Positions 47,388 through 59,643 of a stretch of 64,000 bases of DNA are shown piece after piece. Under the pieces are notes generated by a model that searched no databases, was not told where the DNA came from, and saw nothing but the letters and a program-made list of their open reading frames with translations. The stretch is taken from assembly GCA_963664015.2 (NCBI GenBank), contig CAXXLF010000002.1:448001-512000 (forward strand), read 5' to 3'. The stretch is from Candidatus Binatia bacterium (GTDB taxonomy: Bacteria > Desulfobacterota > Binatia > UBA9968 > CAXXLF01). Each line of letters opens with the position of its first letter. Position 1 is the first letter of the stretch. Position numbers and translations under genes: made by a program.

Positions 47388-48895
47388 TTGAAAGAATCGA
47401 CAGGCTGTGAAAGGCTCCAGACTCCCTTGAACGAATTGAGCTCGCTCGATTATACGATTGTTATTCTTTACCTCACGGGGATGATCGCCGTAGGGTTTTG
47501 GATTGCCCGCCGGGTCAAGGGTTTCACCTTGTTTTTCGTTGCCGGCCGTATGATGACGACGCCACTCCTCGTCTCAACATTGGTGTCGACCTACTACGGA
47601 CTGGATGTGACATTCGGGGTTTCCGAAGTGAGGTTTTCAGAAGGAGTGCTCTCCTGGTTTGTTTATACCAGGCCCTATTACATCGGCATCCTGATCGCCA
47701 GCTTTATCCTGATCCGACGTTTGAAAGCATTCCCGTTTCTTTCCTTGCCTGACGTCGCAGAGCACTTCTACGGTAGGGCGGAAAGATTGATGGTTGCTCT
47801 GGCGAGTCTCCTCTATGATCTCCCCTTCCTGGGAATTATGGGGATGGGTATCCTTTTTCGCGTTATTCTGGGGCTCCCAGAGATGCAAGGCTATCTCATC
47901 GGCGCTGCTATTGCTGCTGTTTATACCCTCCTGGGAGGATTGTGGGCCGATGCCATTACAGACACGTTCTAATTTGTCTTGATGTGTATCACATTGGCCA
48001 TCGCCCTCCCCTTCGCTCTTGAGCTAGTGGGTGGATTTCAATGGATGCTGACGCTCATGGATCCAAAATACTTTACCCCAGCCGGTGAAATCCCGTTCCC
48101 CTACCGCATGGCTTTTATCCTGACCGTGCTTAGTGTTTTTGTAGAGCCAACCTTTTACCAGCGGATTTTCCAGCCAAAGACGAGCGCTCGCTCCGAAACG
48201 CTCTCCTCATAAGCATAGTCCTTTGGGCCGCCTACGACTGGGCAGCAACGATCCTGGGAATGGCCGCCGCAGCGACCGTAAAACAAAATATTCTTCTAGC
48301 CAGTCTCGTGGGTCGCGAGGCCCTCATGCAGATGGTTCTCATATCACTACCTATCGGCCTCCAGGGATTCTTTATCGCTGGTATCCTATCGTCAGCTATG
48401 TCAACCGTTGATTCCTACCTCCTGGTGGCAGGCGGTAACCTGTCCTATGATCTGTACCGACCCTTCGTCCGTCCGAACCTGTCAGAAGCTGCACTGCTCA
48501 GATTGACCCGTATCGGTATCCTTATTGTCCTGATCCCCTCTCTCGCAGTTGCCGTCTATTTTTAGCGAATTTCCGACGCCTGGGTGTTTATGCCCACGTT
48601 GCTTACGGCAACGGCCCTAATTCCTATCATGCCTGGACTCTTCCTCCCAGGACAGAGAAAACCCATGGAGGGATTTCTCTATTCCCTATTTGCCCTGGGA
48701 ACCGTAGTCCTCTACTACATCCTTGTGACGTTTCTGGGTCACCCAGAAAACGAAAGCTTTGTGTTAAGGATCTCCCTATTTTCACAACCCTGGGATATCT
48801 GGCGAGAATACAGCTTATTTTTTGCCTTACCCGCTTCCCTATTAGGATTTCTTTTAGGCTCAACTATTAACCGGACCCGGAGAGAGGTGTCATGA
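47388..48895 (+). pseudogene. Sodium:solute symporter (SSS family) with TAA 47970, a frameshift near 48170 and TAG 48563
   Basis: LDY.IV..Y, FFVAGR, YTLLGGLWA...TD, YQR.FAAK and SAMSTVDSYL. Confidence 0.88.
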
Positions 48896-49331: not shown

Positions 49332-49748
49332 ATGAAGCTCCTCTGTTTTCAAGCAAAGCGATTTTGGTGGAAGACGTATTCCAAGAGCCTATCCGATGTC
49401 CAGGATCAGGATATCGAGAAAGAAGTAAAAGAAGGCTTGATCGTTTTTTTCCATGCCGAGCCTACGGATGAAGAAGAGTCGAGGATGGGTTCGGTCCTAC
49501 GTCACAGCTTAAAGCATATCAAGTGGTTGGCCAACAAGAGAAAGCTTAAGAACATCGTGCTCCATTCCTTTGCCCATCTTGGGGGTGAGGTTGCCTCTCC
49601 CCCCTTTGCTCAGGCCCTGATCGGAGAACTTGCTGAGCGACTGCGAGACACTGACTATCATGTTCAAATCACTCCGTTTGGATATTCCTGCGAATGGGAT
49701 CTCAGTGTGAATGGCGATAGCCTTGCCAAGGTCTGGAAGGAAATCTAA
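49332..49748 (+). CDS. Stand-alone archaeal-type threonyl-tRNA synthetase editing domain (DTD-like fold)
   Basis: MKLL start, FFHAE..D, IVLHSFAHL...A.P..A, V..TPFGY and G..LAKVWKEI parallel the archaeal YPYAHL, PFGWYK and GHPLAE motifs. Confidence 0.8.
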   Translation: MKLLCFQAKRFWWKTYSKSLSDVQDQDIEKEVKEGLIVFFHAEPTDEEESRMGSVLRHSLKHIKWLANKRKLKNIVLHSFAHLGGEVASPPFAQALIGELAERLRDTDYHVQITPFGYSCEWDLSVNGDSLAKVWKEI

Positions 49749-49803: not shown

Positions 49804-50842
49804 ATGATATTTCTCACCAATCAACATATTCAGCAGGTCCTGACCATGGATGCCTGCATCGACGTTATCGAAGAAGCCTACCATGAGTTGGCCGCAGAGC
49901 AGGCCGCCTACCGGCCCAGGATCGACTTTTACGTTCCCCAGGAACCCCACTATTACCGTTGGGGAACCATGGAGGGGGCGTCGCGCAAGCTGGGCGTCAT
50001 GGCCATACGGATGAAATCGGACAAGCTCATCTGGAACCGCGAGGGGGAATTCAAAACCGAGGACAAGTATTGCATCCGCCCAGGAACCTACTGTGGCCTG
50101 GTATTTCTCCTGAGCGTCGGCACCGGTTAACCCCTCGCCTTGATGAACGATGGAATTCTTCAGCACCTGCGTGTGGGCGCCTGCGCTGGATTAGGAGCCA
50201 AATACCTCTCGCGACAGAATTCCAAAGTTTTGGGCATGCTGGGATCCGGCGGCATGGCCCGCACTTATACAGAGGCCATTCGAGCGGTTCACCCCATCGA
50301 ACGGATGAATGTCTTCAGTCCTCCCAAAGCCAATCGAGAGCGATATCCCGAGGAAATAACGCAGCAACTGGGCATCGAGGTGCAGGCGGTCCCCACCGCA
50401 GCACAGGCCGTAAGGGGAGCCGACATTGTCGCACTGGCTACCGACTCCTTGATTCCAGTAATGAACCCCGAATGGGTAGAACCCGGTATGCACGTCACCA
50501 ACGTTCGCTCTAACGAGGTGAATCAGGAACTGCTGGCAAAGATGGATGTTATCGGACGACTGGGTACGGCAACCATGATGATCGATCACCTCCCTGAAGA
50601 CACGATTAACGGCAGTGACGGGATGTTCGCCTATTGCGCCGGAACGGCAGAGAAAAAAGGGCGGATTCCCACCGCTCCTCACCGGGGCGTCGACAACCCC
50701 AAGATCGGCACCCTGCCGGACCTGATGGCAAAGCGCTGGGCAGGGAGAACCAACGAGCAGCAGATCACCTTCCTCAACAATCAGGGAACCCAGGGGCTCC
50801 AGTTTGCTGCCGTCGGGGCCAAGGTCTACGAATTGGCCACCG
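49804..50842 (+). pseudogene. Ornithine cyclodeaminase/mu-crystallin family gene with an in-frame TAA and a truncated C-terminus
   Basis: RVGA..GLGAKYLSR, GMLGSGGMA, ADIV.LAT, PGMHV and G.QFAAV; TAA at 50128-50130. Confidence 0.82.
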
Positions 50843-51072
50843 CTCCCATCGCCATCGACAACCATTTTACCACTTGGAAACGTTACGGAACCCGCTACTG
50901 GCCAACGCTCCACATTATCGACAAGAAGGGAATCATCCGCCATACGCGCTTCGGTGAGGGCGGGTACAATGAGATCGAATCCGTTCTGGAGCGCCTGCTC
51001 GAAGAGCGTTGGAAAAATTCTGTCACACCCGCTATCCTAAAAGAATGGACGGATTGCATTGCACAATGGTAA
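50843..51072 (+). pseudogene. C-terminal remnant of a DipZ-like redoxin, fused in frame to the cyclodeaminase
   Basis: PIAIDN.F.TW..Y..RYWPTL.IIDK.G.IR....GEG.Y..IE..L..LL.E, lacking the CxxC half. Confidence 0.7.
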
Positions 51073-56405: not shown

Positions 56406-57110
56406 ATGGCTAATCAGGACGTCGCACTCATTGTAGGTTCGGGACCAGGGCTAAGTGCCTCCATTGCCCGCCTGTTTGCTAAAGAAGGCATGCGGGTCGC
56501 CATGGCGGCACGCAATACGGACAAGCTGGAAGCGTTGATCGAGGAGGTCAACGGACGGGCCTATCTTTGCGACGCAATCGTCCCAAAAGATGTGGACAGC
56601 CTATTCAGCTCGGTGGCCAACGACATGGGTACTCCGAACATCGTCATTTACAATGCCAGCCGCCGCGCTCGCGGCCCCGTCACGGAGCTTGATCCTGAAG
56701 AGGTTCGGAACGCCATTCTGGTTACTTGCTACGGGGGCTTTCTCGTTGCGCGAGCAGCCGCCAAGCAGATGATTCCGGCAGGGCGAGGCACCATCCTGTT
56801 CACTGGGGCGTCGGCCGGGATCAAAGGATTTGCCAATTCTTCTTGCTATGCCATGGGAAAGTTTGGTCTGAGCGGGCTCGCCCAGAGCCTGGCCCGGGAG
56901 CTTCAACCCCAGAATATCCATGTCGCCCAGGTCGTTATCGATGGCGGAATTCTCAATGCCAAACGCGAACCAGAGCGGATCAAGACGAAAGGTCCCGATG
57001 GCATGCTACACCCCGACGCCATCGCTCAAACCTATCTCAACCTGCACCACCAACACCGTAGCGCCTGGGCCTCGTATATCGAGCTCCGGCCCTGGGTTGA
57101 GAAGTTTTAG
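56406..57110 (+). CDS. Short-chain dehydrogenase/reductase
   Basis: G.GPGL, YNA, FTGASA, KF.L.GLAQS.AREL.P..IHVA..VIDG and ELRPW.EKF. Confidence 0.92.
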   Translation: MANQDVALIVGSGPGLSASIARLFAKEGMRVAMAARNTDKLEALIEEVNGRAYLCDAIVPKDVDSLFSSVANDMGTPNIVIYNASRRARGPVTELDPEEVRNAILVTCYGGFLVARAAAKQMIPAGRGTILFTGASAGIKGFANSSCYAMGKFGLSGLAQSLARELQPQNIHVAQVVIDGGILNAKREPERIKTKGPDGMLHPDAIAQTYLNLHHQHRSAWASYIELRPWVEKF

Positions 57111-57228
57111 ACCTACAGACGCAGGGACGCTGCCCTAACCCTATTGAATTGAACTCATTGCAACGTTATACTTATTAGGCAGCGTTTTAGCCTTCATTTT
57201 CATAAAAAATCCTTGAAAGGGAAAGAGT

Positions 57229-57882
57229 ATGCCACAAGCTCAGCTCGCCTTATTTATATTCGCTTGGTTTTTAACCGTTCCGCTTCTTCATGCGGACGAA
57301 GGCAAACACGGGAACGAGACTCCGTTGTATGGGAAAGTGGTACGGGCTCAAATAACCCCACCAGGAACGCCAGGAGATAAGATCCTCAAGGAAGGCAAAT
57401 TCCCCACCTTTCATCCATTGATAACCCATTTCCCTATCGTCTTGATCATTGCCGCGATGCCCTTTTATGCCTGGGGAGCGGCCCGTAGGCGAATCGTGTT
57501 CCGACGCTCTGGCATGATTCTCGCCGCATTCGGTTTCTTGGGGGCTCTTCTGGCGGGCTACGTTTTTCATCCTCATACGGAAGGGCTGAGCCCTGCAGCC
57601 CAAGAGGCCCTGTGGAACCATAACTTCTATGCAAGCATGACCCTATACGTGACCGCGATTGCCATTGGCATAGGTGTCCTTACCTGTATGCAACGATTTC
57701 AGGGGTTGAGCTTGCAGGCTACGGCTTCGATATTCTTGCTGTTATCGGTTTTGACGGTTAGCATCACGGGACACTATGGGGCAACACTGGTTCATATATA
57801 CGGGGTAGGCCCCAAGGGAGATTTTCTCTCAAAAGAGCATATTGGAATCCATATCCCCATTTTCGACATAACTCTTCGATGA
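57229..57882 (+). CDS. DUF2231-like membrane protein, possibly heme- or metal-binding
   Basis: HPLITHFPI, H.H, and TGHYGATLV..YGVG; four TM segments. Confidence 0.75.
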   Translation: MPQAQLALFIFAWFLTVPLLHADEGKHGNETPLYGKVVRAQITPPGTPGDKILKEGKFPTFHPLITHFPIVLIIAAMPFYAWGAARRRIVFRRSGMILAAFGFLGALLAGYVFHPHTEGLSPAAQEALWNHNFYASMTLYVTAIAIGIGVLTCMQRFQGLSLQATASIFLLLSVLTVSITGHYGATLVHIYGVGPKGDFLSKEHIGIHIPIFDITLR

Positions 57883-57903
57883 AATCCTGGGAGGAGACTG
57901 GCT

Positions 57904-58380
57904 ATGAAGATTAAAGGTAAGAAGTTAAGGCTGTTATGGTTTTTTGGGGTCCCTTTAGTCGTTGCGATTACAGCCATCGTCGTATACTCCCAACCGGCCC
58001 CGGCAAACCCCACCATCACGGTCTACAAGAGCCCGACCTGAGGGTGCTGCTCCAGCTGGGTGGGTCACCTGGAAGCAAACGGTTTCAGCGTTAATAAGAA
58101 AAATGTTACGGGGGCGGCCCTCATAGCAGTCAAGCGAGAACAAGGAGTGCCCTCAACCCTCCGTTCCTGCCATACGGCAGTGGTGCAAGGCTATGTGATA
58201 GAAGGCCACGTACCAGCCGACGTTATCAAACGCCTGCTGACCGATAGGCCGCCCCATCGGGGCCTAGGCGTGCCTGGAATGCCCGTCGGTTCACCAGGGA
58301 TGGAGGGCCCCAACCCCCAGCCTTACGATATCTTCGCCTTCGACCATAAGGGAGGGATGGAAGTCTATGCCAACCGATAG
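57904..58380 (+). CDS. DUF411 (CopG-like) exported metal-binding protein with TGA at a conserved Cys; candidate selenoprotein
   Basis: Signal/anchor, then VYKSPT*GCC..W..HL, SCHTA, GYVIEGHVPA and VPGMP.GSPGME; the only lesion is TGA 58039-58041; GGAGG RBS. Confidence 0.8.
58048..58077 (+). promoter_or_regulatory. Candidate bacterial SECIS hairpin
   Basis: TGC-TCCA-(GCTG bulge)-GGTG-[GGT loop]-CACC-TGGA-A-GCA immediately 3' of the in-frame TGA; folded by eye. Confidence 0.5.
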
Positions 58381-58550
58381 GGATCGGACTATTGTTCCAA
58401 CTCGTTTTTAATCGACCGCAGGATTACCCCCAAACAAAATTCCTCAACCGCCCTGCCATGGGGCTGGTTTCAGCTATTGATCCAAAACTACAGACAGTCC
58501 GGATTGCGAAGCCACCTCCCCATAAAACACATGGGATAACAAGGGGTTAC

Positions 58551-59643
58551 TTACCGAACTTCTCTACTAAGGCTGCGTACCAATTGGGGGTGGTTCGCTT
58601 TCACTCCCGCCATATCAATGCCTCCGCGAGGTTGCGAAAATTTAAGGCCGCACTGCGGCTGAGGGTTATGGTTTGGATTCTCGCTTCATTCAAGCTCGAT
58701 GTGACCTGGCCCTTGATTCGGCGCGCATCGCTTTTGATCCTATCCTCGAATGACCGGCCAAGTTCGCTAAAAGCCCTTCGATCGCCTTGGCTCAACTTTA
58801 ACCATTCTGAGAGATTACATAGAATAAAGATGGCGCCACGAAGCACAGGCGGACCCATCCGATATCGGTAGCTAACCGTCCCCACTCGGCCGGTAGGTCC
58901 GTTCCAAGGAACAGTCTGCCATCGATACTCCCCCGTTCCACACCCGAGGGAGCGACCTGTTCCGAGATACCGACCTCGGTGGCACCAAATTGGCGAAACA
59001 AATGATCCGGTAAATTATGGCCCGAGAGATCGGGACCTTTCGTTCCCAAACGAATCTTGCGTTTGCTAAAGAGCCAGTGTCCGAAGTCGGCCATTGCCCA
59101 CGCGAGCAGATGCACTCCAGCCTTGCGATGAAGCCGTTCATTGAGAAAGTCCAATCCGCCGTTACCACGGATCTCCTGGGGAGACCGTCCGGAGACACTC
59201 AAGACCTTCAGTTCGGGTACGTATTTGGGACCCAGGAGATAACTGGGATCACTGAAAAGGATCGGAATATTCCCGTATTTCATTTTTGTAACCCCACTGG
59301 TCTTGCTTACCCTGCAATCGTATTCCTTTCGATCGTAAATGAGCCACTTGGGATATTCCATCTTTTTTCGACCCCGGGTTACATAACTTCTCTCATAGAC
59401 ATACTCCAGGCCAATGGAGCCGTTACTGACTTCCACCGCCCTTTGAACAAAACGTGTTAGAAATAGTTTCTGTATTGTCGACGTGGGAGAAAAGGTTGAG
59501 AGAACCTCGACGGTCCGTTCCGCTTGCCGTGGTGCAGCTATCTGCTGCCGACTTCCCGTTAGAACACCGAGATCGCCACTGCCGCATGATGCCACGAAAA
59601 CCACCATCGCAACAGTAACAATTGCCGTGGCAATGGAACGCAA
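58551..59643 (-). pseudogene. Degenerate TRAP-transporter DctP-like substrate-binding lipoprotein
   Basis: Lipobox VASC; F..R..E.SNG.I, DL.G, F.QFGA..V....E...G.ERG.IDG and N...W.KL...DR; frameshift near 58880 and TGA at 58601. Confidence 0.55.

Follow-up and report, generated by a model that had tools for sequence, protein, structure and literature searches.

A probable selenocysteine codon in a CopG/DUF411 gene of a Candidatus Binatia bacterium

CopG and CutG are periplasmic thioredoxin-like proteins that hold a tetranuclear copper cluster by means of a CxCC motif and two methionines, and CopG aids copper resistance under anaerobic conditions, with either oxidation of Cu(I) or hand-over of copper to proteins as its proposed activity (PMC7558416 and PMC8456105). 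Here, we describe a gene of this family that lies in a 64,000-nucleotide stretch of DNA from a Candidatus Binatia bacterium (GenBank assembly GCA_963664015.2, contig CAXXLF010000002.1, positions 448,001 to 512,000 of the forward strand), hereafter the window, in which all positions given without a contig name are counted. In place of the first Cys codon of the CxCC motif the gene has an in-frame TGA, and an earlier note, made from the sequence alone, had proposed that this TGA specifies selenocysteine (Sec or U) in an exported metal or redox protein. Conservation of the codon, the presence of the genes for Sec insertion and a comparison of the selenocysteine insertion sequence (SECIS)-like hairpin behind it support that proposal, the export and metal parts of which are predictions. 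We put the probability that UGA codon 46 is a real, conserved Sec codon and that the product is an exported CopG/DUF411 selenoprotein of the UxCC form at about 88 %.

The closest described relatives are CopG of Pseudomonas aeruginosa (6WIS/6WJE) and CutG of Rhodobacter capsulatus, which belong to the same DUF411 family and share the SCHT and GMPxGSPGM motifs and an N-terminal export-type sequence. Unlike them, the window protein has UGA/Sec for the first Cys of CxCC and a SECIS-like hairpin behind it, and its gene, which is in no cop/cus/cueO cluster in the window, sits behind a gene for a DUF2231 membrane protein. Among known selenoproteins, for which an inventory of 119 prokaryotic families or subfamilies appeared in May 2026 (PMC13188914), UxxC is the commonest Sec redox motif (Table 1 of that paper). 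The window protein resembles the Sec-containing thioredoxin, DsbA-like, DsbG-like and thiol:disulfide interchange proteins listed there in that U46 takes the N-terminal position of a UxxC motif (U46..C49), in that the Sec form is paired with abundant Cys homologues and in that the SECIS-like element lies within the coding sequence (CDS), but it differs from these thioredoxin-fold oxidoreductases in belonging to DUF411, in having one more Cys (UxCC) and in its Met/His metal site. It also resembles the predicted Sec-containing metal-handling proteins of the same inventory (the SO_0444 Cu/Zn efflux protein with UxC, CopZ, a cation-transporting ATPase with UxxC, and YHS), where Sec replaces a Cys of the metal motif, though their folds and families are unrelated and none is CopG/DUF411.

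Entries for DUF411, CopG or UxCC are absent from Table 1 of PMC13188914; the supplements of that paper, and Deng et al. 2026 on selenoproteins of groundwater metagenome-assembled genomes (MAGs), may list the family. In the full-text literature no paper linking DUF411 with a selenoprotein or naming PF04214 was found, and the matches to COG3019 and to CopG, selenocysteine and copper in combination were unrelated. The read-through protein (P0001) matched no NCBIfam model, the selenoprotein-specific ones included. The Sec form would be a variant of the known CopG/DUF411 family that uses the known bacterial decoding mechanism.

Reading frame and conservation of the TGA codon

The frame comprises 158 codons including U46, from ATG 57904 to the TAG at 58378-58380 on the forward strand, and holds a single in-frame TGA (58039-58041, codon 46, translated context VYKSPT-U-GCC), with no second stop or frameshift. 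Read through, it gives a protein with, in order, a Lys/Arg-rich and then hydrophobic N-terminus, the segment ITVYKSPT-U-GCCSSWVGHLEANGF, SCHT and GMPVGSPGME; the residues immediately around U46 are SPT-U-GCCSSWVGHLEANGFSVNK. Pfam DUF411 (PF04214) matched residues 86-133 with 90 bits against a cut-off of 27 (E 7.7e-26), and the CopG chain 6WIS_A from the PDB aligned with residues 38-155 (E 1.1e-27), its C-G-C-C lying on the U-G-C-C of the window protein. By this homology in sequence, a thioredoxin-like fold is predicted for the protein. The CH and MPxGSPGM motifs of CopG are kept, both in this alignment and in an alignment of homologues (A1). Translation, the Pfam match and the 6WIS alignment all bear out what the earlier note had described, namely an intact 158-codon frame with TGA at the first Cys of the family motif. 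Taken literally, the CxCC that marks CopG/DUF411 proteins is replaced by U-G-C-C here, and it is present only if Sec is counted as an analogue of Cys.

Standard calling of open reading frames (ORFs) splits the frame into pieces of 45 and 106 aa. The public protein entry for the window (P0002) is the 106-aa ORF 58060-58380, with GTG 58060 as its start, exactly the product that gene callers had been expected to report; the database forms of two relatives (P0013 and P0044) are truncated likewise. The Sec form is thus unseen in protein databases, where gene callers leave a 106-aa stump lacking the signal peptide and the metal motif. A homologue from a JGI metagenome (P0005) was entered at full length with W at the Sec position (..YQDPG-W-GCC..), which suggests a gene call that took the TGA as Trp.

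A six-frame search of 60 related genomes together with the genome itself found the gene in 17 of the 61 (own genome counted) and in 10 of 14 genera. Exactly one TGA is present in each of the 18 strong matches (49-60 % identity), two of which are identical copies in one genome (G002), and it is always in the same column, with the consensus ..VY..P[TG]-U-[GS]-C-C..W around it. A further match was weak (E 1.2e-6) and carried both a TGA and a TAG; it is not among the 18. Outside the order, a sample of 400 additional genomes from the phylum yielded no more than 2 weak matches (3 of 401 matching overall), and no Cys forms were found nearby.

Cys forms came from a wider scan of one genome per species, in which 593 stretches were confirmed with a homologue alignment. 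The best 80 of these 593 loci, to which the counts refer, have TGA in 17 cases and TGC or TGT in 63 in the same column, so that Cys homologues of the Sec form are abundant; a pattern sorted 69 of the 80 (TGA 15, TGC 39, TGT 15) and the remaining 11 were assigned by eye (2 TGA, 9 Cys). Among the best 80 loci and the related genomes, TGA forms occur in six named phyla: Candidatus Binatota, Gemmatimonadota, Chloroflexota, Acidobacteriota, Candidatus Rokuibacteriota and Pseudomonadota. One locus (L043) is in the same genome as a member of the related set (G043), and one of the two Rokuibacteriota TGA rows (L093) is from a genome flagged as unpublished (G473). A DNA pattern for P-T-TGA-G-C-C-x-x-W-V matched at least 120 metagenome contigs, and all 80 of the contigs retrieved carry in-frame DUF411 genes with TGA. 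Of these 80, 68 pass a strict motif test and encode 68 distinct proteins, 6 are cut by contig ends and 6 have CH[S/V/L/A] for CHT. The TGA with conserved flanks is hence found in independent lineages, and the outcome that would have spoken against Sec, a TGA unique to this assembly with TGC or TGT in all close homologues, was not observed; the earlier note's own caveat, that the window holds many ordinary nonsense mutations, is contradicted for this codon by its conservation across lineages.

Conservation extends to the protein on both sides of the codon. Across 31 distinct genomes the Pro at position -2 is fixed with its codon varying (CCC 16, CCG 9, CCT 4, CCA 2), and the Tyr at -5 (TAC 22, TAT 8) and the Cys residues at +2 (TGC 25, TGT 6) and +3 (TGC 24, TGT 7) likewise have synonymous codons. 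Fixed residues with synonymous codons on both sides of the TGA argue against a dead gene and against a product that starts at GTG 58060, a position that is Val, Ile or Ala in homologues and sometimes no start codon. A signal-like N-terminus precedes the TGA in 12 of 12 metagenome loci inspected, some with RR motifs, and the related-genome rows have a comparable hydrophobic start. Three of the Sec forms (L125, L128 and L130) have twin-arginine-type signals (RRSLL, RRRLL and RRGLL, respectively) and others have signals of the general secretory (Sec) type; members of the family thus seem to differ in their route of export.

In contigs from three DNA sequencing runs, each belonging to a different study, the letters at 58039-58041 were the same. 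One run (X4) covers the whole stretch and may be the source of the assembly, another (X6) comes from a strain that is slightly different, with 7 differences at other positions and the same TGA, and the third (X7) is a 251-nt piece spanning 57881-58131. As independent runs have identical letters, the TGA is no assembly slip. Contig pieces from marine runs align solely at 58009-58070, with 3-4 differences, and then diverge; they probably derive from homologues in other organisms. This segment, around the TGA and the hairpin, is the most conserved part of the gene at the DNA level.

A tree of 86 rows and 112 columns built by a quick method was weakly resolved. Parsimony gave 8 Sec/Cys changes and the well-supported branches force just 1, and we draw no conclusion as to how many switches there were or which way they went. 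In one Rokuibacteriota group (L084, L093 and L094, support 92), two TGA rows and one Cys row fall together, a Sec/Cys switch in close relatives.

Selenocysteine machinery and the SECIS-like hairpin

The genome (3.51 Mb in 2 contigs, 97 % complete) contains selA (606 bits), selB (409 bits), selD (373 bits) and a gene for tRNA-Sec (selC, 74 bits), all above their cut-offs, and so has each of the four genes whose presence the earlier note had left to be checked. Outside the window, selA, selB and selD form a cluster at C2:1306534-1312057, and the tRNA-Sec gene lies approximately 10 kb further at C2:1322535-1322625. The selD gene itself has an in-frame TGA, in the context KAAG-U-AAKLGP.

In the other genomes with the TGA form, selA was above cut-off in 16/16 of the related ones and 16/17 of the remainder (32/33 together), compared to 18/35 genomes with the Cys form, the test having taken in 35 of the 63. 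For 16/17 against 18/35 a one-sided Fisher test gave p = 0.002, a value overstated by the kinship of the genomes. TGA is otherwise an ordinary stop in this genome, ending 13 of the 51 long frames of the window, including that of the neighbouring DUF2231 gene.

The hairpin directly behind the UGA is the minimum-free-energy fold of the segment 58048-58077, with the apical loop starting at 58060, 21 nt past the T of the TGA, and thus has the G-led loop and spacing that had been read by eye. In the register of the family consensus, the stem pairs 58056-58062 with 58066-58072 around the loop GGU (58063-58065) and an outer helix pairs 58048-58051 with 58074-58077; an alternative fold has the loop GUGGG at 58060-58064. 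For bacterial SECIS (bSECIS) elements we used our own implementation of the bSECISearch constraints in the legend to Fig. 2 of PMC13188914, and all four hold for this element (-9.7 kcal/mol, 7-bp upper stem, 3-nt loop GGU with G first and then G/U, 21 nt from UGA to loop). Unlike in the consensus model, the stem is made largely of conserved W-V-G-H-L codons.

As the fold of this single sequence is at chance level, support for the hairpin was taken from homologues, and as its stem is built from W-V-x-H-L codons, which makes conservation alone uninformative, two controls were run, one with the Cys forms and one with synonymous recoding. The 17 distinct related-genome sequences (own included) align gap-free, and RNAalifold found one consensus hairpin in them, pairing columns 18-23 with 29-34; at pair 18-34, 11 rows have G-C, 3 have C-G and 3 have C-C. 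Nucleotides 13-40 after the codon folded with a mean energy of -9.6 kcal/mol in the Sec rows (n = 32) and -6.1 kcal/mol in the Cys rows (n = 54; Mann-Whitney p 6e-7, for related rows that are not independent), and five or more contiguous pairs in the consensus register were present in 28/32 Sec rows versus 14/54 Cys rows. Where the residue whose codon pairs with U19 is Leu, that codon is CTG or CTA in 29/31 Sec rows, compared to 14/30 Cys rows. When the rows were recoded synonymously using family codon usage, the Sec rows had a mean z of -1.22 (30/32 below zero, 9/32 with p <0.05) and the Cys rows a mean z of -0.03 (3/54 with p <0.05). Five rows without the common V-G codons (L032, L033, L034, L073 and L076) keep strong hairpins in shifted registers. 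The SECIS-like element is largely missing from the Cys forms.

All four bSECIS constraints hold in 30/31 Sec genome rows, with the loop starting at nucleotides 21-27 in 29/31, and in 75/76 Sec metagenome rows, with the loop starting there in 73/76; the metagenome set was chosen with a pattern that fixes TGGGT, which is half of the 5' arm. Two loci (L058 and L107) are outside the hairpin statistics. A search of 57000-58900 against Rfam gave no family at threshold, and the lone match was a chance one to a snoRNA (E 0.99).

Proposed function and alternative explanations

SelB and tRNA-Sec would decode UGA 46 as selenocysteine, and the stem-loop inside the CDS, directly behind the UGA, would be the signal for it. 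The mature protein would then have U-G-C-C in place of the C-x-C-C motif. By homology with CopG, the selenol may be the reactive and/or the copper-ligating group of a protein that would act as a periplasmic Cu(I)/Cu(II)-thiol oxidoreductase or as a copper carrier. Sec insertion itself, export, the binding of copper and the chemical part played by selenium are all inferred from sequence, and a role of selenium at the copper site is plausible. A more specific proposal, that a selenolate standing in for the first CxCC thiolate would ligate or bridge the tetranuclear copper cluster and so make this a natural periplasmic Cu-Se cluster protein, of an uncatalogued and widespread family, is a tentative one to which we give slightly less than even odds.

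If Sec is present, the selenol in the CopG copper motif is a natural test of what selenium does to a copper site, in terms of affinity, redox potential and resistance to over-oxidation. Were a Cu-Se cluster to form, bacterial copper handling would be tied to the selenium supply in organisms of seawater and soil. The overlooked form occurs in six or more phyla and on no fewer than 120 metagenome contigs, and a simple rule for annotation would be to treat a TGA before G-C-C in a DUF411 gene of a selA-positive genome as a Sec site.

Several observations weigh against this interpretation. The copper role rests on homology, and mutants of Rhodobacter CutG in the Cys or Met motif had little phenotype (PMC8456105). 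A Pfam scan of the window found none of the copper-resistance genes copA, cusCBA and cueO, and copper or efflux neighbours were seen at just 5 of 50 metagenome Sec loci (CusF at L131 and L157, a multicopper oxidase at L143, a P-type ATPase at L141 and a CusB-like protein at L147), with 3 partial cases (L070, L076 and L093) among 31 other genome loci. In one TGA-form genome (G473, the source of L093), the completeness of which is not stated, neither selA nor selB was above cut-off. The conserved peptide W-V-x-H-L largely determines the core of the hairpin stem. The bSECIS constraints are loose, being passed by 34/54 (63 %) of the Cys genome rows, or by 23/54 when the loop start is restricted to nucleotides 21-27. 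The hairpin of the window is not significant individually (z -0.08 against shuffles; z -0.3, p 0.36 against synonymous recodings). The earlier note's checks on independent lineages, on the sel genes and on the SECIS element, with its constraints and its greater stability in Sec than in Cys rows, all came out in favour of its main inference.

Three other explanations were considered. The window does contain short or fragmentary ORFs, such as the one at 47388-47972 for 194 aa of a sodium:solute symporter, and together with a hairpin that is not significant in the single sequence these would fit a nonsense mutation, a pseudogene or an assembly error; but 33 genomes and 80 metagenome contigs share this TGA, the sequence to either side of it is under purifying selection, independent runs agree on the letters and the frame has no other stop or frameshift, leaving this explanation extremely improbable. 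It is also very unlikely, if a little less so, that the UGA is a true stop and that the product is a cytoplasmic 106-aa DUF411 core without signal peptide or CxCC. An in-frame start codon is available for it at 58060, and the databases carry that form and the truncated forms of the two relatives. Such a product would lack the defining metal motif and the export signal. The first 45 codons, and the 6 that separate the TGA from the GTG, keep their protein sequence from phylum to phylum while changing synonymously; the homologues, with Val, Ile or Ala at 58060, do not always have a start codon there.

The possibility that one of the standard amino acids (Cys, Trp or another) is inserted at the UGA, through near-cognate decoding or some local signal for recoding, is slightly less remote than either of these and still improbable. 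The W recorded in P0005 and the TGA-form MAG without detectable selA and selB (G473) are in keeping with it, and computation cannot tell which residue is inserted. Set against this, the TGA form tracks selA (32/33 versus 18/35 Cys-form genomes), the position and G-led loop of the hairpin match bacterial SECIS elements, and TGA serves as an ordinary stop in the rest of the window. Sec sites usually align to Cys in homologues, and this site does so. Decoding as Sec in an exported CopG/DUF411 protein is the reading that we prefer.

Genomic neighbourhood and other features of the window

The features of the locus are collected in Table 1.

Table 1. Features of the Sec-CopG locus, in window positions
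Feature	Position	Strand	Basis or remark
Sigma-70-like promoter match (weak)	57144-57172	+	Upstream of the DUF2231 gene; number of matches in the region not above shuffles
DUF2231 membrane-protein gene, 217 aa, 11 His	57229-57882	+	Pfam PF09990, E 2.4e-10; stop codon TGA
Ribosome-binding site GGGAGGAG	57889-57896	+	7-nt spacer to ATG 57904; read from sequence
Full CDS of the CopG/DUF411 protein, probably Sec-containing	57904-58380	+	Pfam; 6WIS alignment; frame continues past the TGA in homologues
N-terminal export signal or membrane anchor (predicted)	57904-57990	+	By eye: Lys/Arg-rich start, hydrophobic LLWFFGVPLVVAITAIVV
UGA, probable U46, position 1 of U-G-C-C (family motif CxCC)	58039-58041	+	Column conserved in homologues
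SECIS-like stem-loop	58048-58077	+	Folding and comparison with homologues
Cys89-His90 of the SCHT motif	58168-58173	+	Invariant in homologue alignment A1; aligned to 6WIS
Met pair M126-x6-M133 (GMPVGSPGM)	58279-58302	+	Invariant in alignment A1; motif named in PMC8456105; the pair is assigned to copper binding in work on CopG/CutG
Terminator-like hairpin (weak)	58374-58387	+	Overlaps the CopG stop codon; count not above shuffles

The stop codon of the DUF2231 gene is separated from the start of the CopG gene by 21 nt, and the two genes are probably co-transcribed. Contigs from a metatranscriptome-library run (X10) lie on 57443-57683 and 58147-58374, which is compatible with transcription; no contig of this run covers 57692-58142, and both the TGA and the gap between the two genes are thus unbridged in it.

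A clear DUF2231 homologue was found in only two of the 60 related genomes searched (G002 and G004), of which G004 is without a CopG gene, so that G002 is the only one of the 16 related genomes with the Sec gene to have one. G002, a genome of the same family, has two copies of the Sec-CopG gene; approximately 1.5 kb upstream of each lies DUF2231, and the stretch from DUF2231 to CopG holds an ORF of 309 aa on the opposite strand. The two G002 regions (C1:3295253-3297850 and C1:4451609-4454206; L021, L037 and L241) are on opposite strands approximately 1.16 Mb apart and have identical scores and an identical CopG protein, and the DUF2231 and Sec-CopG pair looks like a recent segmental duplication.

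When the ORFs flanking the Sec genes at 31 other genome loci and 50 metagenome loci (150/218 ORFs for the latter) were examined using Pfam, no DUF2231 was found beside them and most of the neighbours were unrelated genes. Similarly, tblastn with the DUF2231, SDR and downstream 281-aa proteins of the window found only the window's own locus among 97 genome loci and none (0/80) among the metagenome loci, the related-genome loci in this search having 1.5-kb flanks that hid the G002 copy of DUF2231. The earlier idea of a two-gene module is therefore in keeping with the 21-nt spacing here and the homologue in G002, and it fails at the other Sec-form genes examined, where DUF2231 is not adjacent. 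The pairing is at most a local arrangement confined to the window's own family.

A scan of the window for further in-frame TGAs gave 50 candidates by length alone, most of which are expected by chance. Two ORFs elsewhere in the window are partial: the 194-aa ORF at 47388-47972 (+) covers 148 of 406 profile positions of the sodium:solute symporter, and the ornithine cyclodeaminase ORF at 50140-51072 (+) begins at profile position 103. These may be frameshifts, pseudogenes or mis-set starts and are perhaps the nonsense mutations to which the earlier note referred. Finally, a stand-alone ORF of 138 aa at 49332-49748 (+) matches Pfam tRNA-Thr_ED (E 7.4e-35), described as an archaea-specific editing domain of threonyl-tRNA synthetase, in what is apparently a bacterial genome.

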